Positions 7,717 through 64,000 of a DNA stretch of 64,000 bases are shown one piece after another. The notes below the pieces were generated by a model. That model saw only the letters and a list, made by a program, of their open reading frames with translations, was not told the DNA's origin and made no database searches. The stretch's first letter is position 1; each line of letters begins with the position of its first letter. Origin of the DNA: Squalus acanthias (lineage: Eukaryota); contig CM059431.1 in assembly GCA_030390025.1 (NCBI GenBank), forward strand, positions 120,654,001 to 120,718,000, given 5' to 3'. Both the position numbers and the translations under genes were made by a program.

Positions 7717-7766
7717 AAGATCAAGCTTTAAGCATTTGGTAGATATAATTCATTGACAGAATTTAA

Positions 7767-23138: not shown

Positions 23139-23707
23139 AAAGTCTTTCTGAGGTGGGGGTTCTTTTTTGGACATGAAACTTTAATAGTCATCATGTTAAT
23201 ACTGAAATCCAGTTCAACAGGCCACTGGACAAGTTTCTTATGTTCATAAAAAAGAAATCCCTCTCTGTCAGACTAGACCACTGGGATGTTCAACATTTAT
23301 TCACTCTTAGAATGGCGGGAATTAAAAGCAGTCCTCCCTATAAAAGAGCATGCACCATCAAAAAGCATAGGTTTGGATGCATAACCATGACTTGATAGCC
23401 AGAAAAAGAGACGCCCCCTCTGGACTTCAAGAATTGGGAATTACTCTCCAGTCACAATGAAGTGGGCGGTATTTCTCAAGGTAGGCAGGTTGGGGGCAGG
23501 GGGGCCTCCGAGACGGGCGGGAAACCCGGGAGGCCAGGTTTCCCGCAGGCCCTGCTGATTTAACAGCAGGGCCTGATTTGCATATGAGGCCTCGGATTCC
23601 CGCCCGCAGCCAGCCTGATTGAGAGGCTGTCTGGCTGCGGGCAGGTAGGCCTGCAGCTGCGGAGAGGGAGCAACGGGTCGATCCGGGGGAGGGATCGTGG
23701 AGGAGAA

Positions 23708-24560
23708 GGTCAGGGATTAGCTGGCTTGGTCAGGGATCGGCGGGGGAGGGGGGGAGGGGATTGGCGGGGGAGTGGGGTCGGGGATCGGCGGGGGAGGGGG
23801 GTCGGGGATCGGCGGGGGAGGGGGGGAGGGGATTGGCGGGGGAGGGGGGTCGGGGATCGGCGGGGGAGGGGGGGGAGGGGATCGGCGGGGGAGGGGGGTC
23901 GGGGATCGGCGGGGGAGGGGGGAGGGGATTGGCGGGGGAGGGGGATCGGGGATCGGCGGGGGAGGGGGGTCGGGGATCGGCGGGGGAGGGGGGGTCGGGG
24001 ATCGGCGGGGGAGGGGGGTCGGGGATCGGCGGGGGAAGGGGTCGGGCTTGGCGGGGGAGGGGGGTTCGGGAATCGGCGGGGGAGGGGGTTTCGGGAATCG
24101 GCGGGGGAGGGGGGGAGGGATTGGCGGGGGAGGGGGTCGGGGATCGGGGATCGGCGGGGGAGGGGGGGTCGGGATTGGCGGGGGAGGGGGGGTCGGGGAT
24201 CAGCGGGGGAGGGGGGGGGGGGAGGGATTGGCGGGGGGGGGGGAGGGGATCGGCGGGGGAGGGGGGGTCGGGATTGGCGGGGGAGGGGGTCGGGATCGGC
24301 GGGGGAAGGGGGAGGGGATCGGCGGGGGAGGGGATCGGCGGGGGAGGGGGGAGGGGATCGGCGGGGGAGGGGGGAGGGGATCGGCGGGGTCGGGGATCGG
24401 CGGGGTCGGGGGTCAGGGATCTGCTGGCTCGGTCGGGGATCAGCGGGGGAGGTTGGAGGATCGGCGGGGGAGGTCGGCTGGGCATCAGGGATCGGCGGGG
24501 TGGGGGGGGGTCGGGGATCAGCTTGGGCTAGGTCGGGGATCGGGCGGGGGGCGGTTGGGG
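23708..24560 (+). repeat. G-rich minisatellite (unit about GGGGATCGGCGGGGGAGGGGGGTC) inside a MITE-like element (about 23464-25085)
   Basis: Dozens of 21-24-nt variant units with long G tracts; flanks resemble the MITE at 22462-23138. Confidence 0.9.
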
Positions 24561-27458: not shown

Positions 27459-29155
27459 TGTAAGGGGTTTTTGTCGTGCTTGTATCACGGACGGTGCTGG
27501 TGCGAGGTTAGGCCTTCGTTGCCTAATACTATTGCTTGCTCTGGTCTCCGGCCAGCCTTTTAGCAATAAGCACCTGTGAGTGGTTCGACCCACTCGCCCT
27601 TACGGTTCTAACACTGGACTTAGGTGCAGGAGCAGTAATGCAGAGAAAACTCAGATAGACCCGGTTGAATAGTACGAAATGGAAATCTTTATTGCATAGC
27701 GTCCAAAATCATGAAGTACATGTCATAGGCGCAAATTAACGAGAATACAAGTATACATACATTCATAAAGCTTGGTCTATGGTAATGAAGAACGCACGGC
27801 ACATCGTAAAAAGGGGAACACATTATACTTTATCCTTAATAAAACCACCCTCCCTTATCAATACCTACACTACATCTAGATTTGTAGGATCGGGAAACAT
27901 GCTCACCACTCGTGATACTTCGGAGAATTTTAAAGTGAGGCACTCGGCTCGTTTCGCTGCAGCGCCTGACTGTCACGTGTTTGGAGGGGTTCTGCACCCC
28001 ACTTGTTTATCTTTGCCACTGCGACAAGCAGGCTGGGCTCCCCGTTGTCATGAAGAACTCGACAGAACTTGGACACGGTTGTAGAACTCAAAAAAAAGTC
28101 TTCCTGTTGTTATGAGGAATTCGATCGACCCAAACCGGATCGTGCAGTAACCCATAGAATTCAAGAAATGAGTTTGGTATTTATATTTTCAGGCGCGGTC
28201 GGGGTTTACTGACCGTGGCGGCACGTGGATTCTTCTTCTTTTCTTGTCATTTCATCTTGTCTTTTCGGGCCTTCGGGTCCAGACACCGTTTACCGACTCT
28301 CGGGATGGTGCACCCGGTCACTTGCCCTTGTCGAGGCGGCTCGTTCCGTTTGAGCTCCACCCAACATTCGAATAGCCGACCCGGACGGCTAAAAGTCAAG
28401 AGTCAACAATGTCCAGCCCTAAGGAAGAGCTTCAGCAAGGGTTCGCCGAGAGATAAGAGAATAAGAGACGATTCGAGCGAATAAGAGACCAGCCGGGAGA
28501 ATAAGAGACCGATGGACATTTGTTCACTATAGTTATAGTGCTGTGTTCCCTTATCTCCCGCCCAAATCTTAATGTTTGTCCTTTGTATAATATTGGCACT
28601 CAAAAACTCCCAGCATGGGGCGATTCTTTCCTTAACGGGTTTCGGTAGCACCTGAAACTGGCCAACTACCCGTTAATGTTTTCCCCATTGTTGACCCAGC
28701 CAGGATTGTATGAATCATCTCCCTGACTGGTTTTGGGGGCCCCCGAATACTCGTTTAATCACCCGTCGATGTCTCTCTCATTGTAGAGCCGTGGGGGTAT
28801 TTGTGTATTGATGTGTCTGGATGGGCCTTCGATTGCCCAGTACAATGGTCCTTACTTGTGCATGGAAAACGAATCCAGCACTTATATCTTTTGCTATTGT
28901 CACAAATGCAAACAGGTAGCATCCTGTCTTTATCAGTGTTTATCGAGTATGATCCAGCCTTATATTGAAATGTTTATTCGAACGCCATCTTGTCTGCCCA
29001 CTGTACTTCTGGAAGCTTCTGCCACGATGCGCGGCGGCCATTTTACAGGCTTCTGTGTCCTTTATAATCATGACAGCATTTCGTTTAATAAAACTGATCA
29101 AACAAATCTGCTTCTCTTTCGTTATTTTGAATCGCGATAATTGCGAAACTTTACA
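27459..29155 (-). mobile_element. Solo LTR (1697 bp), divergent relative of the LTR at 54337-55965
   Basis: TG...CA termini, CACT TSD (27455-27458, 29156-29159); 27575-27700 is the reverse complement of LTR segment 55710-55840 including AATAAA. Confidence 0.92.
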
Positions 29156-30396
29156 CACTGGATTTTTGTCGATGCTGCACCACCTGCAACATTATTTGAG
29201 GAACCACAATGGCCAAATCCAAGGCAAGGGCCTCCCTGAGGTTCTCAGATGAGGAGCTGGGAATGCTGGTTGAGGGGGTGAGAGCCAGCAGGGAGGTGCT
29301 CTTCCCCTCCTCTGGGAGGAAGAGGCCTCCCAAAGAAACCAAGGCAATCTGGGTGCTGCTGGCAAGGGAGATCACCTCCAGATCATTGTGCACCAGAAGC
29401 TGGATGCAGTGCCGTAAAAGGTTCAATGACCTTGTAACATCAGGCAAAGTGAGTATACCTTCAGCTTGACCCTCCTTCTGCTCCCCTTCTCCTCTCATCA
29501 CCAGCACTCTGCATTGTCAACCTCCTCCTACACATCCCACTTTACCATTACAACCCTTGCACCCTTCACCATCCCTCTCACTCTATGAACCCAATCACTT
29601 CACTATTCGACTATGCTGCCCTCACACTCCCTTTCAATGTTATGCAAATACAACGACTAACAACACACAGGGAGGGCCCTTGGACATGAAACCTCACTCC
29701 ATCTTTGTCTCCTTCTAAGCATCTATGCTCTGGACTCTCTACACTCACTCCATCATTCTCACTCCAACTCCACTTGTCTCCCTCACTGCAGTAAAAGAGA
29801 GCCCACAATAGACGGGAAAGGGCGAAGACAGGAGGAGTGCCACCTTCCCTTGCCCATCTCACCCAGGCTGAAGAGGCGGCCCTGGACATCACCGGTGCAG
29901 AGGTGGAGGTGGAAGTGGGGGACAGACAGATGGGCGAGGCAGAGCAAGCTGGTGACAGAAGAGTTTTACCTCTCTCATTCACACTGCTTGAGTGACTGAA
30001 ATGGCTGCTGGTGTACATGCTTATAATGCCACTTGAGCATCTGCACTATTGCATCTGCATGCCACACTTCCGTCAAATATCTAACCCATGCCTTTACTCC
30101 CCCACAGGACCATCCACAGAGACCCCCCGCCCCACTGTCCAGGAGGAAGAGGCTGAGCAGCAAGACTCCTCAGAAGAACCTGCAACCTCTGAGGACGCAG
30201 CGTCAGCAGAATTAAGCGCACCCAGCACCAGCGCAGATACGCACACCTCGGTGGGACCTTCAGGACATAGATTAGTGGTGTCACCATTTGTATCACATCT
30301 CACAGGTGAGCATCAGCAGGTGGTAGAGACAGGTGAGAGTCTTCGGTATAGGGCGCAGGACTCTCCTAGCTCTGCACCGCTGCATGTGGACCATGT

Positions 30397-33300
30397 GGGC
30401 TGGATTTTGCCAGTGTGGGCGGGCTGGGGTGTGTCAGGTGGAAATCGTGTCAGGAGCCCGACTCCAAAGTGAAGTGTTGAAAAAGTGGGATTTTCCCCCA
30501 ATTGGGCAATTGATTTCCTGCGTGTGGGAACCCCTGGCCCAATGAGCCTTTTCATACAGAAAGTCGCCTCCGATGACCTCATCAATGCTGCTGGATTTAA
30601 GGCCTGCAAGCAGCCTTGCTTCTTCTGGAGACTGCAAACGCTTTGTAAATTGTATGAAGGAGTTGATTTCCCGACAAATTCCACGATCAAGCAAAAGTGT
30701 GCACCTCGGTTTGATGAGCCCTCCCTCCAAGCTCTGGTGCACGGAGCCAGATGTAATAAGGAGGTGCTGTTCCCTTCCTCAGGGAGAAAAAAGCCACCCC
30801 AGCAGACAAAAGCTGTGTGGCTGCAAGTGGCCGAGGAGGTCAACTCCATTTCAATGACCCGCAGAACCTGGCTGCAATGCAGGAAGAGTTTCATGACCTT
30901 CTCCGCACAGGAAAAGTGAGTATGACTTTCCCATCACCCTCAATATGATCCCCATCGCCTCTCCTCACCAGCACTCTGCTTTGCCAACCTCTTCCTCCAC
31001 ATCTCACTTGACACTTACATCCCTGCACCCTTACCCATTCCCTCTCTCTCTATGGTCACATTCACTTAACTATTCGACCATGCAGCCCTCACACTCCCTA
31101 TCACTGTGATGCAATGACAACAACAACTTACAGCACACAGGGAGTGTCCTTTGTATCCTTCTAAGCATCTATGCTATCGATTCTCTACAGTCACTCCTTC
31201 ATTCTCACTCAAACTCCACTTGTGTCCCTCATTGCAAGAAAAGAGAGCCCACAATAAGAGGGAAAGAGCCATGACAGGAGGAGGGCCACACTCAGTAGCC
31301 CAGCTCACGCCCTGGGAGGAGGCAGCCCTGGAAATCGCTGGGATCGAGGATGATACCCAAGTGGGGGATGGACAGACAGGCGCATCACAGCAAGCTGGTG
31401 ACAGAATAGTTTGGCATCTGTCTCATTGACATAGCATGAGTCACTGATAATGAATCTGATGCTGTAACAGGTTGACTTATGATCATCTGCACTATTCAAT
31501 GTGCATGTAACCTTGACCTCACATCTCTAACTCGTTCCTTTATTCCCCCACAGGACCATCGAAAGCTCCCGTCCCCACTGTCCAGGAGGAAGAGCCTGAG
31601 ATTCCAGACTCCTCAGAGGAAGCTGCAACCTCTGAGGGCGCATTGTCAGCAGAATTCAGCGCACCCAGCACCAGCGCAGACACTCACACCTCGGTGGGAC
31701 TTTCGCGAGATAGAGTAGTGTTGTCACCTGGTGTATCACAGCTCACATGTGAGCATCAGCAGATTTGTGGAGACAGGGACAGCAGTGGAGAGTCCTCGTC
31801 AGAGGGCACAGGACTCTTCCAGCTCAGCTCAGCTGCATGTCGACCCTGTGCCCCCGGGTCCATCCAGAAGGAGAGCGGTGCTGGAACTCCAGGAACAGGT
31901 GCAGGAGTCTTTGGCAGGTTTTGTCTCCAGGGTCGCTGCGAGTGTGCAGCGAATGGAGGAGTCCATCGCGAACATGAGCAGAGCCTTTGTGGAGGCATTG
32001 GCGCATGAACGCATCACCGCGGAAAGGATGGCAACCTCCGTGGAAAGGATGGCTAACTCCATGGTAAGGCTGGCTACCATAGAGGAGAGGATGGCTACGG
32101 CCATGGAAGAGCTTAGTCGCCAGTGTATGGAAAACATGGTGATTGTTCAGAATAGACTGACATCTCTTGAGGAGCAATGGTCAGCTATTGAGCATAGAAA
32201 CCAGACCTGCATGGAAGTCCTCTGGAGTAGGACTTCCAGTGCAGAAACGGGTCCTCATGACCACCCTGAAGTGCAGCAAGGTGCTGTCAAGCCACTTGCT
32301 AGCTCTGAAGTGGGGCTGACCCATGAGAGGGATGTTGGTGGCAGAGAACAAGGAAGTGGGGGATCCTCTCCAAGCGCTCACATGACCATGCCACTGCAGA
32401 GCCCTCAGTCAGAGTCCCACCAGAGTCCTCACCCAACTGAGATGGGCATCTCAGCCCCTGCACAGCTGTAGGAGTAGCAGACTTTTGGCGAGCCTGCACA
32501 GGTTCGCCACCTCAGAGGACGGCCACCAAAGGCGTCGAGACTGGAGCAGCAAGAAAGTGAGCAAGGGGCTTCCCCATCTGCTGAAGCCACAGGGGAAGCA
32601 ACACGTAGGAGCACGTGTGAGAGGAAGATAAAGCAGAAGTAGTCACAAGGGTAGTCACTTGGGTGCTGTGATGTTTTGTATTTGGACCAGCCATCATTGT
32701 CATTGTATTATAAACAGATTTGATGGCAAACTGTTGAAGTTGTGGCCTGTGTCATTTCGCAAATGGGACTCTCACATTGAGGGCTCAGGGTGCCTTGCAA
32801 TTGTCAGTATGGTGGTCAGAGTGATAGGAATCCGGAGGTTCTTGTCCATTGTGGATGCTCTGGTAAGAAGTTGCGAGACTAAAGTGTTTGATTGTGCAGG
32901 CTCACCAAATCTGGCCAAGATGAGTGCGTCCCTTGCATCCTGGGCACCAATGTTGTCGCACGCTGGTGCCTTCTGGCCTCTGTAGCTTAAGGTGGGTGAC
33001 TAGCAGCTTGGCGCTCCTTGATGCTCCTGTTGTTGGTCCTGCTGTTGTTCATGGTTCTGCTGCTACCGTGGCTGGTCTTCGTCCAAATCTACTGTCCAGG
33101 AGGAAACAAATTAAATGGTCGCCATGCTTCTGGTATATGCCTCAGTTGAGGAAGCGCTCAGTCAAGGTGGGGAGAGGGGTTTCCCAGGAGGTCACACTGG
33201 AGATGGGTGTCAGGCTCCAAACTTCCACAACAATGAGTAGGCCTGCTAAAAGTTCGCCCAGACCTGAGACAACAAAGGTCTGCCACCTGCAAATGATCAA

Positions 33301-33666
33301 CGGTGAAAACTCCTTTTTAATGGTGGAGCTGCAGCTGTTAGTAAGCAATCCACTTGTGAGGCCGCCAGGATTGCATTGCGTGTTCCAGAGGAGGCGTGTA
33401 GGATGGGGGAAATGTCTAAAAATCGGAAAGGCCTCTCAAAATGGGATAATAGAGGCAATTAAGTTGTTGCTAAGGGCCTTAAGGGCCTATCCTGCCTCTT
33501 GGAGGCGGGATGGAAAGGGGGTCAGAAAACACGCTTCTGGGAAAATTGCTTGGTGGCGGGATGGAGGCGGGATGGAGGTGGGATCGGGCCCGCCTGCCAT
33601 TTTTTGTGATTTTACCACCTCGCACGCCTCCAAACCCGCATCCTCGTGCTTGGCAAAATCGAGCCC
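30397..33666 (+). mobile_element. Harbinger element B nested in exon 3 of the Myb gene of element A
   Basis: TIRs gggctggattttgccag ... ttggcaaaatcgagccc; element A coding sequence resumes at 33667; no clean TSD visible. Confidence 0.85.
30684..32642 (+). pseudogene. Harbinger B Myb/SANT-like gene (exons about 30684-30915, 31238-31397, 31554-32642) with coiled-coil ERMA heptads
   Basis: APRFDEPSLQALV..KEVLF...W.QVAEEVN....RTWLQCRKSF; exon 2 has the same 160-nt length as in A, acceptor mutated to AA; frameshifts and stops present. Confidence 0.82.
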
Positions 33667-34679
33667 ATAGCCTCTGGGTCCATCCAGAAATGGAGTGGTG
33701 CTGGAACTCCAGCAGCAGGTGCAGGAGTCTCTGACAGGTCTTGTCTCCAGAGTCACTGTGAGTGTGAAGAGGATGGAGGATTCCAACTCTAACCTGAGCA
33801 GTGCCGTTGGGGAGGCAATGACGCATATACGCAGCACCACGGAAAGGATGGCAACCTCCGTGGAAAGGCTGGCTATGGCCATGGAGGCAATTAGTTGCCA
33901 AAGGAAAACATGGTGATTGTTCAGAATAGACTAACATCTCTGGAGGAGCAATGGGCAGCTATTGAACAGAGAAACCAGAGCTTCATGGAAGTCCTTTTGA
34001 GTGGGACTGCCAGTGCAGAGACGGGTACCCATGGCCCCCCTGGTGTGCAGCAAGGTGCTCTTAAGCCACTTGCAAGCACTGAGGTGGACCTGACCCATGA
34101 AAGGGAAGTTAATGGCAGACAACAAGGAAGTGGGGGGCTCCTCTCCAAGGGCTCACACTTCCATGCCACTGCGTAGCCCTCAGTCAGAGCCCCACCAGAG
34201 TCCACACCCAACTGAGATGGACGTCTCAGCCTCTGGACTGCCGCAGGATGAGCAGTTGTTTGGCGAGCCCTCACAGGCTTGTAAACCCAGAGGATGCCCG
34301 CCAAAGGTGTCGAAGCAGGAGCAGCATCAAAGTGAGCAAGGGGCCTCCACTTCTGCTGAAGCCACAGGGGGAGCACCACATAAGAGCACACGTAAGAGAA
34401 AAATAAAGCACCATTAGTCACAGAGGTAGCCACTTGGGTGAATGTTTATGTGTATTGAGGAAATGCCATCCCTGTTGGAAAGTAAAAAAATGCTTTGATG
34501 GCAAACTGTCATTTCGCCTTAGGCAGCTCCACATTGCAGGCTCCGTGACACTTGCGTGGTCAGGTTGGTGGCCAGAGTGAAAGGAGACCAGAGAGTCATG
34601 TCCATTTTCTATCATGTCTTAAGATGGATCCAAGGTCATGTGCCAACATGGGCAACCTATGCAATTCTGGCCAGGATAA

Positions 34680-43052: not shown

Positions 43053-45419
43053 GGGCCTGAATTTTGCAGTAGGAATAACGGTCTATCAGCGCTCACCATT
43101 ATTATGGAGTAAATCGGACAGCAACTTCCAGTGTCCACATATGCGCAGTTAAACACAGAAATCAGGAAGTTGCTGTCCAATTTGCCCTGCTCCTCCACAA
43201 GCTTCGCTCTAACAGTATCTCGTCCAGAGACTTGGCAATCAAACACATGAACGACATGTAGTTCCAGTACTTACCCACTAGATACCCATTAAACATGCCA
43301 GAAAAAGATAGCGCTTGTCCATTCAAATGTAAGTGAAATTTTAATGGCATGATAAGTCTTAATTATTACAAACAACCTCTCTGGCTTTGAAAATTTACTT
43401 TTGCTGGTGTGGAGTCTCATTCCTTCAGATTTTAATTATTGTTGGAGTTATAATAAAAGTTTAAAAAAAAAAATTTCTCTTTTTCTTTCTGTCTCATTTA
43501 TTTCTCTCTCTTAATCCCATCTTTCTTTCTCTCTATTTTGCTTTCTGTACATGATTTTACATTGAATTAAATATTCTAACTTACACTTCGCGGGGGAGGC
43601 AATTTAGGTGTTTAAGAGATTGTTCATAGCCTGTTAAAGAGAATTTTGAGCTCAGTTTAACATTTTATGAGGTCGCCCACGGGTACCACGCTGCTCGGGG
43701 ATCACGTCAGGTAAGGAGGTCGGGAATTGTGTCACCATGAAATGATCTCTTTACTCAACAGCTGCAAATGTGGTATAAAAGCTCCCATCTCACAGTTGTT
43801 CACTTTTCAAGCTCAGAAGCTGTTGCTTACTGCATTTGGAAGACAGATTGAGCTTTATGCAGGTTGCAAGTGTTTGGAGTAAACTCTGTATCCAGTGTCA
43901 TTTCAATGGAACATCCTCTCTCACCACTGACAGATCGCTTCTGACATCTCAACTTCATCTGCTACCTATTACATCAGCATCGGTGCCCTTGAAAGTATCT
44001 CACCTTGGTCCTTAGAATCCCAACACGATCAGCCCCAACACCAGCATCACCAGGAACACCAGCAGCACCAGGCACACCAGCAGCACCAACAACACCAACC
44101 TTCTCCTCAATCAACTGATGCTGCACAGGACACAGGGCATCAGCACTCGACCACATTGCTGCCCAGGAGGCCAGGGATGGCCTCACCACAGCCAGATTTA
44201 CTTCACTTGACACTGTACACCCTGGCTGCCACATGATGTGCCAGGTTGGCACCACCCCACACCAACACCATAAAGCACCCCTACAATGCCCAAGCCATTC
44301 CTTTCACACTCATCACCATTGCGGGGGTACCGTTATATCTCACTATTCACTGCAACTCACTAAGCCACTTCCAAAGGTGCACACAAATCTGTCCAAGAAC
44401 ACAAAGTGTTGAAAATAAAGATTTCAATGTTTGACAGCACATTAACAGAAACTTTACATGAACATTGGCTAAAACACCCAAGTGCTTACCCTTGTGTGTT
44501 GTTAGTTGGTATGATTGGACTAGGATGAGGGTGAGTGTGAGGGGTGGCTAGTGAGATGGGGAAGCGATAATGTAGATAGAGGGGGACGGGTGGAGGTGCA
44601 AGGTAAGTTGGTGTGAGTAAGGATGTGCAGGAGTAGGGTAGGGAAGGCAGAGTGATGGGGATGTGATGAGTGGCACAGGAGGATGAGGTTGAGTGTGGCT
44701 TTGCAGTAACGTTTCGCAATCTACTGAGATCATTGAAAGGTTTGTGCCACTGCAGCCTGTTCCTCCTGATGACATCCCTGCTTGTGTCCTCCTCTGCAAT
44801 GTGCAACCAGGCTGCGTTGATCCCCTGGGGAGGTCTCTTCTGCCCATTGGAAGGGAAGAGAAGCTTCCTGCGTGCTGTGACTCCCTCCATAAGTATATGG
44901 AGGGAGTCATGGGAGAGCCTGGGTACAGCCATGCACCTTTGTGAAGTGCTTGTCAGTGTTTGCAGCACCTCAATGCTGTAGAACACTGACAACACAACTG
45001 TCAAAATAAATTTGCATCATTAAGTGAAGTCATCAGACCCGCTTCCTTCAATTGGCCGGCAAATGCGCTGGGCAGGCTTAACAAGCCCAATCAATGTAAA
45101 ATCACTTGGGACTGCGGGCTGGAGCCAGCAGCGAGGTCGGGACCCTCCACCGACCCCAGCCGCACCAGACTCGCTGAGGTAGGCGAAATCACGGCCTTCG
45201 TGCCTCAGTAACAATTCTTCAATCTGATTGGTTGAAGAAACACGCTATTGCTTTCCCTCTTCACACACGCCACAGACCCCCTGTAAAGCGCGTTGTGCTG
45301 AACCAGATGCCCGATGACAGCAAGTTGCTCTTAAAAACCCCACAAAATGTCTGTGGGCAGCTGCAAGTGTAATGAACGGTGAGCGCCGTTCCTTCACCGT
45401 TGACCACAAAATCCGGGCC
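43053..45419. mobile_element. MITE-like element hosting a nested Harbinger derivative
   Basis: TIRs gggcctgaattttg ... caaaatccgggcc. Confidence 0.6.
43591..45196 (-). mobile_element. Non-autonomous Harbinger element (family of 7767-9504 and 11574-13779)
   Basis: Minus-strand PRLSHDSLHILMEGVTARRKLLFPSNGQKRPP...WLHIAEE; colinear with the two plus-strand copies; left boundary approximate. Confidence 0.85.
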
Positions 45420-54336: not shown

Positions 54337-55965
54337 TGTAGAATTCGCAATATATCGCGATTTTATTAATAAGGAGAAAACACAGAGTTTCGTTCAAACA
54401 GCTTTTATTTCAGCAGAATGCTGACAGGTTTAAAGTGGACACAAGCAGCCTGTAAAATGGCCGCCGCACCTCGTGACAGAACATTCTAGACTTTTCAACA
54501 GGCAGACAAGATGGCGTTCCAATAAACATTTGTGCAAGATCGATTAAGAGTCAGCACAGTGAAGATAATACACGAGACATTATGGGTTTGCAGTATACAC
54601 ATAAATACTGAAATCGGTCTCCCAGGTACAAATGAAAGCCATTGTACCGAGTAATCAAGGGCCCATCCAAAAGACATTAATATGTAAAATCCCAACGACT
54701 CTACGATGAGAGAGCCGTTAACAGGTAGTTATACAAAACACTTGGAAGCCCCACAACCCCTCCAGGGAGAACACCGACCGATTTAACAATGGGAGAAATA
54801 TTAACAGGTACTCAGACATTTACGAGTAGCCCCGAAACCCATTAAGAACGGAGATCACCCATACAAGACATTTGAGCGCCAGACCCTAAACAAAAGAATG
54901 GACATTAAGGTTGGGCGGGAAACGGAAGATTTTGCACTATAATTGCAGGCTCCAAACCGTCCATCTTTCTCTTATCCGATCGACTCGTAACCTCGTGGCT
55001 GCTCCTGTGTACTCGTAGTCGGGCTCCTGCTTGCCTGTTGACTCTTTGAAAAAGACTGTTGAACTTTCTGATCCGTTCGGATCTACCTCGTGTCGCGTAA
55101 CGAAGACCTATGTTGGTAACTGGCAGCGGAACCAAAGGCCCGAGATGAGATGAGATGAGATGAGATGAGATGAGAAGAGAGGAAGACCATATCCATCGCC
55201 ACGGTCAGTAAATCCCGACCGCGCCTGTAGGTCGAACAGCCAAGTTTTCCTTGCCAGGAAGACTTCTTCGAACTTGCAAAGAACATATCACATCGATGAT
55301 ATTGACAACTGTGCTCGGAAAAGTACCTGTTAAACCAACCAACACAGGTCTTCATCACAGCAGACGGTCCAGCCTGCTAGCCGGAGCAGCAGAAGCAAGT
55401 AAACAAGTGGGACCAGGAGATCTCCTGACCGACACGTGGGTGCTGCGGTGAAAAACATCCGATCAGCTATTCGGAATTTCTCCGAGTTATCACGAGTGGT
55501 GAGCACGAGTCTCGAAATCCTACGAATCTAGTTAGGATAGATATTGATAGGGGAGGGTTTAAGGATTAAGGATATTTGTAATGTGTGCCCCTATTTACTG
55601 TGTGCCGTTCGTTCCTCGTTTCCCTAAGATCGACTATATAACTGCTTGTAAGATTGTACTGTCATTAATCTGTGCTTATGACATGTATTTCATAATCTTA
55701 AGTATCATGCAATAAAGATTTTCCATTTCGTACCATTCAACCGAGTCTACATGAGTTTCATCTCCATTACTGCTCTCGCATCTAAGTCCAGTGTCTAGAA
55801 CCGTAAGGGCGAGTGATTCGAACCACTCACAGGTGTGTCTAGTGTTCCCAGACTGGCTGGAGACCAGAACAGGCAACAAGGCCTAGACCCGCACTGACAT
55901 ACAGGCTGCACAGAGCCGCGTGAATCTCACAGGCTGCGAGACACGCAGGGTCAGAATCCCTTACA
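54337..55965 (+). mobile_element. Solo LTR (1629 bp)
   Basis: TGTAGAA...CCCTTACA; GCTC TSD (54333-54336, 55966-55969); AATAAA at 55711; internal (GAGAT)n at about 55142-55173; LINE resumes after it. Confidence 0.95.
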
Positions 55966-57165
55966 GCTCCCGACCTCATTACAGCCTTGGTCCAAACATG
56001 GACAAAGGAGCTGAATTCCAGAGGTGAGTTGAGAGTGACTGCCCTTGATATCAAAGCAGCATTTGACCAAGTGTAGCATCAAGGAGCCCCAGTAAAACTG
56101 AAGTCAATGGGAATCGGGTGGGGGGGTGGGGGGGGGGGGGTGGAAATGCTCCACTGGCTGGAGTCATACCTAGCACAAAGAAAGATGGTTGTGGTGGTTG
56201 AAAGGCAATCATCACAGCCCCAGGACATTGCTGCAGGAGTTCCTCAGGGCAGTGTCCTATGCCCAACCACCTTCAGCTGCTTCATCAATGACCTTCCCTC
56301 CAACATAAGGTCAGAAATTGGGATGTTCGCTCATGACTGCACAGCATTCAGTGCCATTCGCAACTCCTCAGATAATGAAGCAGTCCATGCCCGCATGCAA
56401 CAAGACCTGGACGACGTTCAGGCTTGGGCTGATAAGTGGTAGGTAACATTCGCACCACAGAAGTGCCAGGCAATGACTATCTCCAACAAGCGAGAGTCTA
56501 ACCACCTCTTCATGACATTCAACGGCATTACCATCGCCGAATCCCCCACCATCAACATTCTGGGGGTCATCATTGACCAGAAACTTAACTGGACCTGCCA
56601 CATAAATACTGTGGCAAAAAAGCAGGTCAGAGGCTAGGTATTCTGTGGTGAGTGTCTAACCTCCTGACTCCCCAAAGCCTTTCCACCATCTACAAGGCAC
56701 AAGTAAGGAGTGTGGTGGAATACTCTCCACTTGCCTGGATGAGTGCAGCTCCAACAACACTCAAGAAGCTCGACACCATCCAGGACAAAGCAGCCCATTT
56801 GATTGGCACCCCATCCACCACCTTAAACATTCACTCCCATCCACCACCGGTGTTCTGTGGGTGCAGTGTGTACCATCTACAAGATGCACTGCAGAAACTC
56901 GTCAAGGCTTCTTCGGCAGCACCTTCCAAACCCATGACCTCTTCCACCTAGAAGGACAAGGGCAGCAGGCGCATGGGAACACCACCACCTCCAAGTTCCC
57001 CTCCAAGTCACACACCATCCTGAGTTAGAAGTATTTTGCCGATCCTTCATCGTCGCTGGGTCAAAATCCTGGAACTCCCTACCTAACAGCACAGTGGGAG
57101 TACCTTCACCACAGACTGCAGCAGTTCAAGAAGGCGGCTCACCACCACCTTCTCAAGGGCAATTA

Positions 57166-57609
57166 ACGAATCTAGTTAGGATAGATATTGATAGGGGAGG
57201 GTTTAAGGATTAAGGATATTTGTAATGTGTGCCCCTATTTACTGTGTGCCGTTCATTCCTCGTTTCCCTAAGATCGACTATATAACTGCTTGTAAGATTG
57301 TACTGTCAGTAATCTGTGCTTATGACATGTATTTCATAATCTTAAGTATCATGCAATAAAGATTTTCCATTTCGTACCATTCAACCGAGTCTACATGAGT
57401 TTCATCTCCATTACTGCTCTCGCATCTAAGTCCAGTGTCTAGAACCGTAAGGGCGAGTGATTCGAACCACTCACAGGTGTGTCTAGTGTTCCCAGACTGG
57501 CTGGAGACCAGAACAGGCAACAAGGCCTAGAGCCGCACTGACATACAGGCTGCACAGAGCCGCGTGAATCTCACAGGCTGCGAGACACGCAGGGTCAGAA
57601 TCCCTTACA
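57166..57609 (+). mobile_element. 5' LTR of provirus, truncated to its last 444 bp
   Basis: Matches 55522-55965 with about 3 substitutions by eye. Confidence 0.95.
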
Positions 57610-57613
57610 GAAA

Positions 57614-59425
57614 ATGGCGACCGCGGCAGGACACTGGCAGCGAGAGGGTAGTGTGTTAGACTTTGGAATGACTGTACGAAATGTTATGCAGGAAAAGATA
57701 GCAGATTATGTGTTCGGAAAGGTTAATCTAACTAAGAAATGGATAAGTGAATTGTTAGCGGATAAAAGCCCGCTAGAGGCAGCCGAAAGGTGGACAGATA
57801 GTAAAGAACATAAAAAGACACTTGAGAAAGCAGTCTGGCTTATGTGTTACAAAAGGCAGGTTCAGATTTCAAACCAGACCATTACAGCGCTAGTAGCTCG
57901 AATCAGTCATTTAGAGGGAGAAATGGATGAGAAGGTTTCTGGAGGGGAGGTGCTCATTAAGAATTTAAATGAGTTGCACCAAGAAAGCCAGGAAATCTCC
58001 AGTCACCTTAAAACAAGGATAGATTATCTCGAGTGCCAGGTCACTGAGGCAAAGTTGAATGAGAGCAGGTTAAAGGAAAGATGTAACCGCCAAGCTGCCC
58101 AGATAAGAACTCAAGAAGAGAGCTTAACGGGGGTTAGGGCGGCATATAAGTTGGCCCTTGAGGATAAGTTTGAGGGAGCCGACCATAGCGCCTGCCAAAG
58201 GGAGATAGAGCACCTCAAGAAGGCCGTAAACAAAGCGAACGGCATGGTGTGCCTTATCAGTCCGTCAGCACACCAGCCGTTAGTAAGTGAGAAGTTTAAG
58301 AAATCCCCACCAAGTAAAGCAGAGGAAGTAGTAGCCACTGCGCCCTCCGCGCCACCCAGCTATTCGGAAACCTGGGTAAGGGAGGAAGCAATGGAAGAAA
58401 CAAAAGAGCCCATTGAAAAAGAAGTAGGAAAGGGACCGTTGTATCCAGTAACGGGCATTAAAAGGGGCCCAAACAGAAACGGTGGGGAAGAACCGGGGGA
58501 TCTCCTCGGACAGCTGGTGTTGCCTCACAGTTCACATCAGCTGAGAGCTATGATAAATCATGTACGGAAGCTGACCGAGTCAGACGACCCTTCCGTACAT
58601 TTCAGAGAAGTTGAGCAAGCCGCAGCCATTAACGGCTGCGATGATGGGGAAACAGCAAAAATGCTGCTGTTCTCACTAGACAGCTCGGTCCTTCAGTGTC
58701 TCTCAGGCGAGAGCAAGAGGGGAACCAAGACTTATGAGGAATTGAGGGATGAGGTCCTGGAAGTGTTGGGGGCGAACGATGAAGGTCCGTTTGCTAGAGT
58801 GGGACAGACAGTGCAGATGGAGGGAGAACCCCCGAAGGTTTTTGCCGACAGGCTGTGGCCAGTATATGAGCGCAGCTGTCCAGGTGCGCCCGAGCGCGAA
58901 GATGTGGAAGGCACCGCTTTAACTCATTGGCTTAGGTGCATAATAGCCAACAGTTTACCAGCCGTCAGAGAGCAGGCAAAAGCATGGTTTGATCCCAATG
59001 ACCCCAACATTACGGAAGAGTCGGTCTTGAATCGACTCACGTTAGGTTATCGCAATATAAGGGGTATGGCAACACGTCCCCTTAAGGGAAGAGTACATGA
59101 GGTACGACCCGCAGCCCCGTATCAAAGAGAGTGGCATCAGGAGGGTAATCGCGCCCCACAGGCAGGTAATGCTTGTTACGGGTGTGGGAAGACAGGGCAC
59201 TGGTGCAAGCATTGCAGGAACCCTTGGAAGGATTCCAAGGATAAAAATCCCGCGGTCCGAGCCCAGGCGCCTGTCCCGGCTAAGGAAGCTAAGGCACCCA
59301 CCCCTCCTGACGACCTCGAAGTAGTGTTAGGAGCCATGCGCAATCTAATCTTGAGTGCGCGTGGACAGGTGGCGGTCGCAACCGGCCCCGTAGGTGCCGC
59401 AGGACCGTCTAATAGTACCCCATGA
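57614..59425 (+). CDS. gag: Gag polyprotein (603 aa): N-terminal coiled coil, PSAP/PPSY late motifs, capsid-like region, one CCHC zinc knuckle
   Basis: Intact ORF directly after LTR/PBS; PSAPPSY at 58343-58363; CYGCGKTGHWCKHC at 59174-59215. Confidence 0.92.
   Translation: MATAAGHWQREGSVLDFGMTVRNVMQEKIADYVFGKVNLTKKWISELLADKSPLEAAERWTDSKEHKKTLEKAVWLMCYKRQVQISNQTITALVARISHLEGEMDEKVSGGEVLIKNLNELHQESQEISSHLKTRIDYLECQVTEAKLNESRLKERCNRQAAQIRTQEESLTGVRAAYKLALEDKFEGADHSACQREIEHLKKAVNKANGMVCLISPSAHQPLVSEKFKKSPPSKAEEVVATAPSAPPSYSETWVREEAMEETKEPIEKEVGKGPLYPVTGIKRGPNRNGGEEPGDLLGQLVLPHSSHQLRAMINHVRKLTESDDPSVHFREVEQAAAINGCDDGETAKMLLFSLDSSVLQCLSGESKRGTKTYEELRDEVLEVLGANDEGPFARVGQTVQMEGEPPKVFADRLWPVYERSCPGAPEREDVEGTALTHWLRCIIANSLPAVREQAKAWFDPNDPNITEESVLNRLTLGYRNIRGMATRPLKGRVHEVRPAAPYQREWHQEGNRAPQAGNACYGCGKTGHWCKHCRNPWKDSKDKNPAVRAQAPVPAKEAKAPTPPDDLEVVLGAMRNLILSARGQVAVATGPVGAAGPSNSTP
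57615..57632 (+). promoter_or_regulatory. Primer-binding site, tRNA-Arg(UCG)
   Basis: TGGCGACCGCGGCAGGAC is complementary to the 3' 18 nt of a vertebrate tRNA-Arg-TCG as I recall it (...GTCCTGCCGCGGTCG-CCA); lies 5 nt after the LTR. Confidence 0.85.
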
Positions 59426-60535
59426 CTAGAGCCCACGCAGCCTGCCTACCTGTGTCCTTTTAAAAGACACGCACAGGAGGGGGTCTGCGGTGAGGAGGCC
59501 AGGTTAAAAGAGCAGGCCTTGCGGGAGGAGAACGCCCGCTTAATAGGGAAAATAGATGGGCTGGAAGGGCAGCTTAGAGAGCAGGCCCTGCGGGAGGAGA
59601 ACGCCCGATCAATGGGAAAGTTAGACGTGCTCAGGCTAGAAGGGCAGCTTAGAGAGATAAAAGCAGCCTACAGGGTAGCCAAAAGCCGGGAGTATGAGGA
59701 TGTAAACCAGTGCAAACTGTACCAGCCAGGTGCGCAGGGGAAAACTACAGGGGTAAATCCCGCCAGTGGGAAAGCACAGCCCCAGGTAGGACCACAAGGC
59801 ACACAGGCAGGCATAGCAGCTTGCATCAGGGGAAGGGACATCCCGGACGATCATGCAGCGTTTTTCTGGAATTGGGGGTTAGATGAGGAAGAATTCAGGG
59901 TACCCGGGTCAGATGAGGACAGTGCAGATGAGGATAGTGATGACGACGGGTGGTTTCTGAGGAACGGTCTGGAGGGAACGGGGGCTGCAGATAGAGATCC
60001 ACACAGGGTGGACACACAAGCTGCAGGTCCCGAAGACAGGAGGGAGGAGCTAGGGGAGGCAGGGCCAGCCGCTATGGGAGCACAGAGAGTACCGGTATGG
60101 CTCCCAGAGATGTGGCCGCCCGCTTTGAACGTCCCGCCCTCGGGGGAGGCAGAGATCACGAGTGAAGGGCCGCCTGCTGGGCCAAGCAGGGCGGAGCCAC
60201 AAACTGCGAGCCCCGAGGTTAGGGAGGCGGAGTCAGCGGAGGCGGAGCCAGCGACTGTGGTGGAACCCCAGGTCATCCCGATGGAAGCCTCGGAACCCGG
60301 TCCGTCCGTCACAGAACCCCCGCCCATAGCAACTCCCCGTAGGTCAAGTAGAGAACCCCAGCCCAGGAGGATGTGGTCATTTCCCCAGACTGCCCCAAGG
60401 CGTAGAGTTAAGGTTAAGATAACCCAGATACAGGCCGGCCACATCGCAGCAGCAACAGGCTGCGGCAGATCAGAGGGAAGGGTCAGTGCCCTCCCACCGT
60501 CGGGAAGAGCTCGCAGCAGCCTTCTCAGAATTTAA
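59426..60535 (+). CDS. Unknown ORF in frame with gag, in the position normally held by pol (coiled-coil, acidic and Pro/Glu-rich)
   Basis: Open from the codon after the gag TGA to 60535 (369 codons); no protease D(T/S)G, RT YxDD or integrase motifs seen. Confidence 0.7.
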   Translation, partial: LEPTQPAYLCPFKRHAQEGVCGEEARLKEQALREENARLIGKIDGLEGQLREQALREENARSMGKLDVLRLEGQLREIKAAYRVAKSREYEDVNQCKLYQPGAQGKTTGVNPASGKAQPQVGPQGTQAGIAACIRGRDIPDDHAAFFWNWGLDEEEFRVPGSDEDSADEDSDDDGWFLRNGLEGTGAADRDPHRVDTQAAGPEDRREELGEAGPAAMGAQRVPVWLPEMWPPALNVPPSGEAEITSEGPPAGPSRAEPQTASPEVREAESAEAEPATVVEPQVIPMEASEPGPSVTEPPPIATPRRSSREPQPRRMWSFPQTAPRRRVKVKITQIQAGHIAAATGCGRSEGRVSALPPSGRARSSLLRI

Positions 60536-60825
60536 AGGGGCCGCCCTGAGAACGGGCGGCACTGTAAAGTTATAAGTTTTAAGTCTTAAGTTTATAGTTC
60601 AAGGTTAAGTTTATAGTTTTTTTTGATAAGGTTAAGATTGTAGTGTTTTTAACAGAAAACGATAAAATGATGGGAGCTTTAAAGTTAGGTTTAGTTAAAG
60701 TTTATTCAGCGAACGTGGAAGTTTACGTGAGGCGAGGTCAGGGGACCCGCTCACCCTTCACAGAAGCCAGAGACTCTTGCGAGGCTGGCTACTTCATTCT
60801 ATTTGATCACAGGAACCAAGGAAGG

Positions 60826-63177
60826 ATGGAACGAATTCTAGTATTGCTCGCGGCAATCGGATGTGGATTGGCCTATCGAGGCCGCACCAAGGATGTCGTG
60901 GTGTTTGGATGTTCCGGGAACACGGCCCCCATCGCGGTGGATGGGACCGGAAGACGGGAGGCAGAGGAGACCAGCACCTATTTCCACAAGGGAAGGTGGC
61001 CAGGATGGCTGGGAACGAACTCAACGGAGTATTCTAGCACATCGGGGTTTGCCTACAAAGAGACTTCTTTACTGTGCCCCAAAGTAAGGATCATCGCACC
61101 CAGGATCAGCGTCACCGTCGGCAAACGGATTTGTTTGACTTGTAGTGGGAAGGTCCCATTGAGCCGATGGTGGTGGCTGCGAAAGCTGAGCAAAACTATG
61201 AGGAACTCTTCGGTCGAGTGGGAACGACTGGGTAATAATACCCATCGGACAATTACGGGGACAAACGGACAAGTGAAAGTCTGTTGGGACAAATGGTGGG
61301 AACCGGACGAGGGAATTTATGTATGTATGTGGGGGTCAAAGTACGTTTGCCCCAAAGGCATCTCCATATTTTTCATTAATCAATGGCAGGATAACGGACA
61401 GGGGATGAGGTGGGATGCGAGCACCAGGGGGTGCGGAGCCCCATTCTCCCCGATCCCAGTAAATGCCACTGAGCTCATTACGCGCCCACGCAAAGCCCCG
61501 CCCACGATTCCGGTGGTTCTAGCTGAGGAAGAAGGGTGCCCTAAAACTAGTAAGGGACCCGGGAATGGTTTGGTACTGGTCCCCACAGACCAGATACTAT
61601 TTCAGGGGGTACATTACGCGGTGGCCTCGGTGATTTTAAATCTCACCGAGGTGCGGTTACCAGAGTGGTGCCCCAAAAAGACGGAACAGTTGTATCAGGT
61701 CCTGTTGACCAAGATGTTCAGACAATTTTACGAATTCGATTTCGCGGAAATTGATAAAACAAGTTTGTACACCGCACCACAGGAAGTTTTGAATCAAGCA
61801 GGGAGGCAAAGAAGGGGTTTGGTGAACGATGCGTTCACTGCTTTTAACACGGGTACATCTGTGGTCAACGCTCTAGACAGTGTGGAGCTGCAGACCCAGA
61901 TTAATGGTTTAAAGACACAATTAAAAGACATTCTAACAGATGAGAATAAAGTGGTAGGGTCAGGTTTACACGAGGACCAAGCCATGACTCTCCATTTAAA
62001 GGAAATTATAGCAGAGTTGGAGAAACATGCAAAGACGGTAAATGCCCTGATTAGGGAAGATCGGAATGCATCCGATCAAGCTGCGCAGAACGAGGTGTGC
62101 GTGCTTTACGGGGCGTGGTTACTGGGCGAGGGCCGCAGTAATTTGGAGGATTTAAAACAAGGTTTGGTTCCGTCCTGGATAAGTAACAAACACCTGCGGG
62201 CGCTCCACCCTTTTCAGAACGCATTAAGTCCGTGCCAGCTCAGGCTAGCTTCAGAAGCATACCCAGTCCCCGTGGACTGCGGACGATCAAACCATACTAT
62301 TATGGGAATAGTATTACGCATGCCGGTTTTGGGCGACACAGCAAAGCCCGCCCCGGTGTATCGGGTAGAGAACATTGGTGTCATTCAGGGGGGAGCCCAC
62401 ATTCGTTATGCAGCGGTTCCACCTTACGTCATCCGCTGGGAGCAAACGATGACAGGTACAGATCTCTCTGGTTGTCGTGGCAGGGGAGCACACATAATAC
62501 TGTGCCCCCAGCACTTGAATGCCTTTTTAACACCACAGTGCGGGTTCAGAACGACTGGCGCCAAGTCCATGAATTGCACCATGGAGGCAATGGCACAAGA
62601 TCATGTGCCTCCGCAGGTAGCATACGTCGGGGGTGGAACATATTGTGTTACCACTGCAGCGCAACACTACCAGCATGGAAACCATAGCCGGTGTCCGGTG
62701 AGTGACAGCAGTTTTTGTTTTAAACCCAGGGCGGAAGTTCAAGTAGCACAACAGCGAATTATCCCAATCCCTGAACCATCCACTGTTCATCTCACAGTAA
62801 AAGAGAATTTCACCGACTTGCAGCGATTCGTCGCGCATTTTGGATACCTCATTCCCCCTCTCCCTGAACACCTCACCAAGCTTTTAAATGCCGTCGCGGT
62901 ATCACAGAAACATTTTTACACATTAGAACAGAAAACTGTCGAAATAGGGACAGACATTCTGGATATAGTAGTTCCACCGTGGTGGAATCTGTTCACTAAT
63001 ATTGAAGTGCCTTCATGGATCAGAATAGCCTCCCACATTTTAGTCGTATGCCAAGTTTTCATTGTAGTGTACCTATTGGTCGTACATTGTAAAAGAGACA
63101 AGCGCCTCACCAAGCATGAAAACACGGGAGAGTGGCGAGAACGTTACGTGCGTGTGCACGATGAAAGCACCGTGTGA
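60826..63177 (+). CDS. env: Envelope glycoprotein (783 aa): signal peptide, Ig-like domain, furin site, F-type class I fusion subunit, TM anchor
   Basis: MERILVLLAAIGCGLA signal peptide; RQRR/GLVND at 61804-61830; heptad region; Cys-rich region; TM IASHILVVCQVFIVVYLLVV at about 63025-63085; frame is open from 60643 but a splice acceptor lies at 60812. Confidence 0.9.
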   Translation: MERILVLLAAIGCGLAYRGRTKDVVVFGCSGNTAPIAVDGTGRREAEETSTYFHKGRWPGWLGTNSTEYSSTSGFAYKETSLLCPKVRIIAPRISVTVGKRICLTCSGKVPLSRWWWLRKLSKTMRNSSVEWERLGNNTHRTITGTNGQVKVCWDKWWEPDEGIYVCMWGSKYVCPKGISIFFINQWQDNGQGMRWDASTRGCGAPFSPIPVNATELITRPRKAPPTIPVVLAEEEGCPKTSKGPGNGLVLVPTDQILFQGVHYAVASVILNLTEVRLPEWCPKKTEQLYQVLLTKMFRQFYEFDFAEIDKTSLYTAPQEVLNQAGRQRRGLVNDAFTAFNTGTSVVNALDSVELQTQINGLKTQLKDILTDENKVVGSGLHEDQAMTLHLKEIIAELEKHAKTVNALIREDRNASDQAAQNEVCVLYGAWLLGEGRSNLEDLKQGLVPSWISNKHLRALHPFQNALSPCQLRLASEAYPVPVDCGRSNHTIMGIVLRMPVLGDTAKPAPVYRVENIGVIQGGAHIRYAAVPPYVIRWEQTMTGTDLSGCRGRGAHIILCPQHLNAFLTPQCGFRTTGAKSMNCTMEAMAQDHVPPQVAYVGGGTYCVTTAAQHYQHGNHSRCPVSDSSFCFKPRAEVQVAQQRIIPIPEPSTVHLTVKENFTDLQRFVAHFGYLIPPLPEHLTKLLNAVAVSQKHFYTLEQKTVEIGTDILDIVVPPWWNLFTNIEVPSWIRIASHILVVCQVFIVVYLLVVHCKRDKRLTKHENTGEWRERYVRVHDESTV

Positions 63178-63616: not shown

Positions 63617-63628
63617 AACAGGAGGGAC
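63617..63628 (+). promoter_or_regulatory. Short polypurine tract
   Basis: aacaggagggac immediately before the 3' LTR. Confidence 0.65.
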
Positions 63629-64000
63629 TGTAGAATTCGCAATATATCGCGATTTTATTAATAAGGAGAAAACACAGAGTTTCGTTCAAACAGCTTTTAT
63701 TTCAGCAGAATGCTGCCAGGTTTAAAGTGGACACAAGCAGCCTGTAAAATGGCCGCCGCACCTCGTGACAGAACATTCTAGACTTTTCAACAGGCAGACA
63801 AGATGGCGTTCCAATAAACATTTGTGCAAGATCGATTAAGATTCAGCACAGTGAAGATAATACACGAGACATTATGGGTTTGCAGTATACACATAAATAC
63901 TGAAATCGGTCTCCCAGGTACAAATGAAAGCCATTGTACCGAGTAATCAAGGGCCCATCCAAATGACATTAATATGTAAAATCCCAACGACTCTACGATG
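63629..64000 (+). mobile_element. 3' LTR (runs off the window)
   Basis: Matches 54337-54708 with 3 substitutions in 372 bp by eye. Confidence 0.95.

Follow-up and report, generated by a model that had tools for sequence, protein, structure and literature searches.

In the mouse intracisternal A-particle (IAP) element 1Δ1, an internal deletion has produced an in-frame fusion open reading frame (ORF); the element needs Gag and Pol enzymes in trans, its gag-pol fusion acts in cis, and it dominates new insertions (PMC6466679). Here we describe a non-autonomous endogenous retrovirus (ERV), with the layout LTR-gag-ORF2-env-LTR (LTR, long terminal repeat), in a 64,000-nucleotide (nt) stretch of the Squalus acanthias genome (assembly GCA_030390025.1, contig CM059431.1, positions 120,654,001 to 120,718,000 of the forward strand; hereafter the window, whose own numbering is used throughout). 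As in IAP 1Δ1, the Pol enzymes are deleted and the frame is kept for a fusion ORF. In contrast to IAP 1Δ1, where gag is fused directly to pol and env is absent, the window element retains a whole gag, a putatively leaky stop codon that gates the fusion, an env under strong purifying selection, and an inserted piece of Gag coiled coil, a design found in three families. An earlier note on this DNA held that a UGA-CUAG readthrough signal fuses Gag to a non-Pol protein, the Gag-Pol switch being retained but loading a different cargo into particles. The idea of a foreign cargo falls; what stands is a predicted readthrough context absent from the retroviral contexts listed in the review cited below, and the collapse of pol in frame in three families.

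Several other systems share features with the shark elements. Moloney murine leukaemia virus, walleye dermal sarcoma virus, salmon swim bladder sarcoma virus and the zebrafish endogenous retrovirus (gamma- and epsilonretroviruses) likewise have one in-frame stop that separates the zinc knuckle from the DTG motif of protease; the contexts listed for them are UAG-G plus a pseudoknot, UGA-AGA, UGA-CGA and UGA-AGU, none of which is UGA-CUA(G) (PMC13517186). No retrovirus with UGA-CUA(G) is among the examples given in that review, a 2026 survey of readthrough in animal viruses. The cellular readthrough genes AQP4, MAPK10 and OPRK1 carry the identical UGA-CUAG core motif (10.64898/2026.07.14.738498), whereas the shark site is the Gag-Pol switch of a virus, and its sister families show the variants CUG-G and CUA-A. 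Snakehead retrovirus (SnRV) and clade Huo, which comprises SnRV-related ERVs (PMC6001957), resemble the pol-bearing relatives of the window element in their in-frame gag-pol stop, tether plus RNase H, and Arg-rich Pol tail. The SnRV junction reads UAG-GGC (PMC13517186, section 4.1.2), in contrast to UGA-CUA/CUG in the shark, and the post-integrase tail measures ∼60 aa in SnRV vs. ∼200-280 aa in the shark, the window element itself having no pol. The elephant shark, too, has been found to carry SnRV-related ERVs (PMC4422223), CmiERV lineage I being one such group, and the reverse transcriptase (RT) loci of cartilaginous-fish ERVs belong mostly to clade III (PMC11089739). Lokiretroviruses and zebrafish BHIKHARI share with the shark elements an F-like Env, tether plus RNase H, a coiled-coil Gag and young pol-less derivatives (PMC7947760; 10.1101/2024.03.25.586437); BHIKHARI, unlike the window element, encodes Gag only. 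We found no description of the window family or of a UGA-CUAG retroviral junction in the literature within reach; subscription journals, Repbase and bioRxiv supplements lay beyond it and could hold one.

The gag-ORF2 region of the window element comprises the following features:

57614 to 59422, plus strand: gag, 603 aa from its ATG, with an N-terminal coiled coil, a putative capsid region and one CCHC zinc knuckle.
59423 to 59429, plus strand: predicted UGA-CUAG Gag-Pol readthrough site (TGA at 59423-59425, CTAG at 59426-59429).
59426 to 59457, plus strand: 5' stump of pol, 32 nt, ∼11 codons before protease.
59458 to 59699, plus strand: Gag-derived coiled-coil insert with an internal 69-nt duplication, common to a second pol-less family.
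59700 to 60535, plus strand: post-integrase C-terminal tail of Pol, low-complexity and predicted to be disordered, ending at Pol's own stop.

The gag end CCA TGA CTA G, the 31 codons quoted after it and the 973-aa in-frame product were all verified on the sequence; the codon before TGA is CCA in the window copy and CAA in most of the copies listed. Past the stop the frame is open over 59426-60535 (369 codons plus a stop; 973 aa in total with X at the UGA), while each of the other two forward frames over the ORF2 stretch holds 19 stops. An open run of 31 codons is unremarkable by chance (P ∼0.21); the corresponding values are ∼9e-9 for 369 open codons and ∼0.004 for CTAG following the stop. The ORF previously placed at 59519-60535 is indeed an open frame, but its start does not stand: 59519 is a TTG, a bacterial-style start, and the first AUG of the frame comes only at codon 63 (59612), leaving none close to the 5' end. 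The window Gag is 52% identical to a skate protein carrying PF00098.

Sister loci were chosen by Gag similarity alone (the genome was searched with two database Gags), giving 14 loci, seven pol-bearing and seven pol-less. In all 14, gag ends in TGA-CTA or TGA-CTG, and only CTA or CTG follows the UGA in the 16 sister junctions read. The stop is followed in frame by protease and RT in each of the seven pol-bearing loci, as TGA-CTA-A or TGA-CTG-G, and in two further loci (L045, L047) one in-frame stop separates gag from protease; one pol-bearing relative scanned with Pfam has protease, RT, tether and RNase H. The expectation that pol-bearing relatives have TGACTAG followed by protease was borne out at 17 loci genome-wide, found in a pattern search with the window's own 20-nt junction plus a protease motif, but not at the loci picked by Gag, which read CTA-A or CTG-G. 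One pol-bearing parent shares 92% identity with the window from 57614 to 59457, a stretch made up of gag, the stop and 32 nt beyond it, and then enters protease. Within the window's family TGACTAG occurs in all 19 copies fetched, and genome-wide in 684 of 694 junctions with exact flanks. Because protease and RT follow this junction in frame in the pol-bearing relatives, the UGA-CUAG is, as judged by sequence, the in-frame gag-pol junction of the parent, and the earlier claim that the Gag-Pol switch was retained is well supported. Since the parent must read through the UGA to make Pol, a few percent of ribosomes very probably read through it in the window element as well, yielding a 973-aa Gag-ORF2 protein, with enzymes supplied in trans from pol-bearing copies.

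No RNA structure 3' of the stop stands out among the 12 junctions folded (z -1.81 to +1.22, no shared fold; pseudoknots lie outside the models used), in contrast to the stimulatory pseudoknot or stem of the gammaretrovirus type. A stem spotted by eye downstream of the stop was no better than shuffles and was dropped. Human UGA-CUAG sites are tuned by sequence up to +27 nt, and a large structure is unnecessary (10.64898/2026.07.14.738498); beside this, the retention of exactly 32 nt of pol after the shark stop counts in favor of the explanation preferred below. The least probable explanation, by a wide measure, is that the UGA is a true stop and that any expression of ORF2 depends on a spliced RNA or starts at an internal AUG (59612). 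This would fit the lack of a detectable stimulatory structure, but 62 open codons precede that AUG in register with gag, pol-bearing relatives keep the same junction in frame with protease, and human sites of this type need no large structure.

The composition of ORF2 contradicts the description of a non-Pol protein with a different cargo, which was mostly wrong. About 289 of its 369 codons derive from Pol (11 N-terminal and 278 C-terminal) and the remaining 80 from part of a related Gag coiled coil. At 59457 the pol-type continuation and the window sequence part ways, and a public contig shows the same point of departure. From 59700 onward the window matches pol-bearing copies again (89% nt over 59700-59889, 83% nt over 60216-60700, 81-82% aa); the counterpart in those copies extends from the last integrase residues through the Pol stop. 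Between these pieces, the insert at 59458-59699 is 83-89% identical (nt) to pol-less copies of a second family, family B, whose longer form of the insert can be aligned with three Gags in their coiled coil (35-37% identity over 78 aa, with E from 2e-12 to 3e-16). Only through this longer form in the sister family is a derivation from Gag visible; a direct BLASTP comparison of the window Gag with its own ORF2 was not significant (E 1.9). The junction between insert and tail lies on a 10-nt microhomology. By these alignments, ORF2 is Pol minus protease, RT, RNase H and nearly all of integrase, with a piece of Gag coil instead and both ends of Pol in register. A single-sequence structure model predicts one helix spanning residues 20-98, mostly at pLDDT 73-96, and is of low confidence elsewhere (mean pLDDT 54). 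No ORF2 homologues were found among proteins of 202-646 aa, longer forms lying outside the range searched. Four pol-bearing loci (L035, L036, L048 and L049) carry a low-complexity post-integrase tail of 200-280 aa, far longer than the SnRV Pol tail, with a ratio of nonsynonymous to synonymous substitution rates (dN/dS) near 1.

Pol was lost in frame in three families: A (that of the window), B and C. Family B (four loci) has the Gag-coil insert and the tail; family C (three loci) has a protease scrap, an RNase H/integrase-linker scrap and the tail, but no Gag coil. Six founding events can be distinguished (pol-to-insert, the 69-nt duplication, insert-to-tail in A, insert-to-tail in B, and two large deletions in C), a count that omits smaller indels possibly older than the loss of pol. 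All six junctions are in the native frame on both sides. Under a microhomology null, 0.37-0.46 of 4-8 nt pairs in natural pol pieces are in frame (0.40-0.45 per junction), so that six of six would arise by chance with a probability of ∼0.004-0.008 (0.008 computed for 0.45).

The window's pol-less element outnumbers its autonomous partner. In the 3.7 Gb genome the junction region drew 2004 candidates, the best 40 of which are 98-100% identical, and we counted at least 867 exact pol-less junction matches vs. 17 matches to junction plus protease, a rough ratio, as the two patterns differ. The junction is bridged in contigs of two other organisms, with 1 and 2 differences (4 of 14 public runs examined); these four runs consist of contigs of guessed or unknown kind and show presence only, and no RNA run is listed among those that contain the sequence. 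On C1, C2, C5, C8, C12 and C3716, several copies lie head to tail at a spacing of ∼7.7 kb (pol-less) or 12.4 kb (pol-bearing), which is consistent with tandem units sharing a common LTR.

Selection was examined by comparing shared variants with singletons in the window and the 19 fetched copies (19 of the 39 other best matches, a sample biased to close copies); the frame statistics as a whole rest on small samples, namely these 19 own-family loci and the 16 sister junction loci read. Among shared variants, dN/dS is 0.28 for gag (44 nonsynonymous, 61 synonymous), 0.06 for env (5, 33) and 1.17 for the tail (48, 16); among singletons the values are 0.41, 0.30 and 0.56, respectively. Against the pol-bearing parent, gag gives 0.40; integrase gives 0.10-0.13. 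The last 96-98 codons of the tail give 0.94-1.16 in all five A/B comparisons, one of which pairs two pol-bearing copies (1.03); when family C is the partner the values are 0.76-0.78. For the insert, dN/dS is 0.68-0.75 over 48-54 codons, not different from 1 (p 0.53-0.58). Length variants of ORF2 common to more than one of the 19 copies measure 12, 15 and 39 nt, all multiples of three (the 39-nt variant is present in all four public runs), whereas frameshifts are private to single copies, none being shared. The earlier expectation that the frame stays open across copies was borne out in part: the stop context is universal among the 19, and ORF2 is open to its natural end in 13 of them but broken in the others. 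Gag is intact in 12 and env in nine, some env losses being rearrangements or locus ends. The pattern is thus of a frame that is kept and a peptide that is mostly free, with one short basic motif recognized by eye in all three families. A specialized cargo is argued against because the peptide lacks purifying selection over most of its length.

These observations suggest that keeping the ORF2 frame translatable helps a defective element to spread. Our preferred explanation, to which we assign a rough probability of 0.47, is that the frame is kept translatable for a benefit in cis to a non-autonomous, pol-less element. That the ORF2 frame is under selection to remain open we consider probable; that the thing selected is translation across the old pol interval, and not the peptide, is the least certain step. 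The likeliest course is that helper enzymes copy the element, that its Gag and Env are its own, and that some ribosomes still pass the UGA. Ribosomes that read through would translate another 1.1 kb before meeting the native Pol stop. In the unspliced RNA the gag stop is kilobases away from the 3' end, and these ribosomes could help to protect that RNA against nonsense-mediated decay (NMD), as readthrough elements are reported to do (PMC10141005). Alternatively, translation might act in cis like the fused ORF of IAP 1Δ1. Either gain in cis would let the short element outnumber its helper. A broader composite, in which shark retroviruses of the SnRV clade use a UGA-CU(A/G) context of cellular or alphavirus type, three families collapsed pol in frame for an advantage in cis, two of them gained a Gag coil and with it a Gag-coil-tail protein dosed by readthrough, and this protein helps an env-keeping parasite to beat its helper by about fifty to one, is doubtful when all its parts are taken jointly.

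A number of points weigh against a frame maintained for translation in cis. A few percent readthrough clears only 1.1 kb of a much longer 3' region, so the gain with respect to NMD may be small. The peptide is not uniformly free: the first 63 codons of the tail give a dN/dS of 0.49 (p 0.022) in one comparison, though 0.60 (p 0.31) in another, and the basic motif RRSxRxPQPR(K/R)xW, identified by eye, is kept in all three families. The shared indels of the tail are weak evidence because the in-frame null rises to 0.57-0.8 in this repetitive sequence, and one shared stop-class substitution is listed in the tail. ORF2 is broken in six of the 19 copies, about like gag (seven), and retention would be expected without selection in a family as young as this one, with 97-99% identity among copies and 99.8% between LTRs. 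In the sister pol-less families the frame is fully open in only three of four (B) and one of three (C) loci. Finally, six junctions are few, and they were counted by eye from protein alignments.

Of the rivals, selection on the Gag-ORF2 protein itself survives best, although we regard it as unlikely. The extra coil would bundle with the N-terminal coils of Gag at assembly, and the basic motif of the disordered tail would favor the defective RNA in mixed particles; the motif might presumably act as a nuclear or chromatin tether, a role we assume by analogy. The insert is read in Gag's native frame, forms the one confident predicted helix (residues 20-98) and is kept by two families whose gags differ strongly; the basic motif occurs in all three families, and SnRV Pol likewise ends Arg-rich. 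The IAP 1Δ1 precedent, too, is described as a protein acting in cis (PMC6466679). Nevertheless, the insert's dN/dS is indistinguishable from 1, family C does without the Gag coil and carries protease and RNase H/integrase scraps instead, and the tail is close to neutral even between pol-bearing copies, all of which fits poorly with a selected protein.

Only slightly less likely, in our estimate, is a neutral relic: signal and frame would have been inherited, the deletions would have fallen in frame by microhomology and luck, and the family would be too young to have decayed; only RNA signals acting in cis at the two ends of pol, such as an env splice region, would be needed. Such a relic accords with the very slight divergence of the copies, a tail dN/dS near 1, the in-frame bias of microhomology (0.4-0.8), the 10-nt microhomology at the insert-tail junction, and the gathering of breaks in single copies, as in gag. 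It must contend with the six of six in-frame founding junctions across three families, the absence of shared frameshifts among the 19 copies, and an insert that is 11-16% diverged (nt) between two pol-less families yet open. Were the frame only a relic, the finding would shrink to an ordinary internally deleted ERV.

The shark offers a natural experiment on why defective retroelements hold on to frames for which they have no further use: a single genome contains young copies by the hundred, as well as three pol-less families and the parents of these. Such material lets ‘translation matters’ be parted from ‘peptide matters’, a question so far addressed mainly on mouse IAP 1Δ1. It also adds a predicted UGA-CUA/CUG retroviral readthrough context, natural variants included, to those in the review cited above. 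That env is so strongly constrained although pol is gone suggests that the element spreads by reinfection, using enzymes that it borrows.

The window element derives from a pol-bearing, SnRV-related parent in the same genome. As it has no RT of its own, classification relied on its pol-bearing relatives, in an RT-tether tree of 21 rows that contained no foamy, ERV-L or Loki references. The RT of the shark pol-bearing elements groups with a Pol from coelacanth, at 50% identity and with support of 81/71, and with P0006 (92/88, not starred), whose RT matches, by eye, the SnRV row printed in the supplement of PMC7947760. The relatives have a tether (PF17917/PF17919) followed by a PF00075 RNase H; the RT-RNase H of murine leukaemia virus and of foamy virus covers 197-771, that of Ty3 only up to 615. 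By RT and by the tether plus second RNase H, the relatives group with SnRV (clade Huo). An assignment to the lokiretroviruses, whose RT clade is sister to all other retroviruses, was dropped, as the RT sits with SnRV and has the retroviral motif LPQGF, in contrast to PFGY in the two Loki rows seen. As to integrase, which in lokiretroviruses is closest to CGIN1, the nearest database Pol is labelled ‘NYNRIN-like’.

Downstream and upstream of the gag-ORF2 region, the element and its locus contain:

60667 to 63177, plus strand: env, 836 aa from its first ATG, with an Ig-like N-terminal part, an RQRR cleavage motif, a paramyxovirus-F-like fold and a transmembrane helix.
54337 to 55965, plus strand: complete LTR copy, 1629 bp, with TG...CA ends, sitting in a LINE fragment with a 4-bp duplication (GCTC) on either side.
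57166 to 57609, plus strand: 3' part of an LTR, 444 bp, the truncated 5' LTR of the element.
57615 to 57632, plus strand: primer-binding site, 18 nt, overlapping the gag ATG and complementary to host tRNA-Arg(TCG) at its 3' end, CCA included.
63620 to 63627, plus strand: polypurine tract, identified by reading the sequence.
63629 to 64000, plus strand: beginning of the 3' LTR, which extends ∼1.26 kb past the end of the window.

A structure model of Env (pLDDT 61.6) has as its top matches in the Protein Data Bank the F proteins of paramyxo- and pneumoviruses (best E 2.5e-11), while a sequence search of solved structures with Env returned nothing. An F-like Env is not exclusive to lokiretroviruses, as the Env of a walleye epsilonretrovirus also matches (viral library). 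A 53-residue leader precedes the hydrophobic signal segment, and the Ig-like N-terminal region precedes the F-like fusion module. The nearest named homologues of both Gag and Env are from skate, with further Env homologues in two sharks and in frogs. The start peptide of the skate Gag homologue resembles that of the window Gag, whose ATG (within 57614-57632) lies 5 nt past the LTR end, overlapping the primer-binding site. The likely primer of this ERV family is tRNA-Arg(TCG); large tandem arrays with a 1623-bp period at ∼38.9-42.2 Mb of contig C26 also match its 3' end (424 matches genome-wide).

The layout of the locus is unusual: a full LTR and 1.2 kb of LINE sequence are followed by a partial LTR, the internal region and the 3' LTR. 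The complete LTR is 99.8% identical to the 3' LTR (3 mismatches), and the same LINE flank follows both the 3' LTR and the first LTR (window 54337-57609; locus L009). The layout may stem from a local duplication in which one copy was reduced to a solo LTR, or two alleles may have been merged in the assembly. An inverted 75-nt fragment at 27611-27685 is 87% alike to the LTR of this family.

On the minus strand, a 226-codon frame underlies the Pol tail (59851-60531), with four stops remaining in that frame over ORF2. Pfam gave no family match for it, nor anything significant for the window Gag, ORF2 or Env, and it is probably a by-product of base composition. Elsewhere in the window are a G-rich minisatellite with a period of ∼24 nt (23656-24420), two diverged sets of tandem duplications with periods of ∼1.45 kb and ∼1.78 kb (29421-34432), and three copies, one of them inverted, of a ∼90% alike repeat element containing short tandem units (7765-9032, 12310-13451 and 43758-45198).

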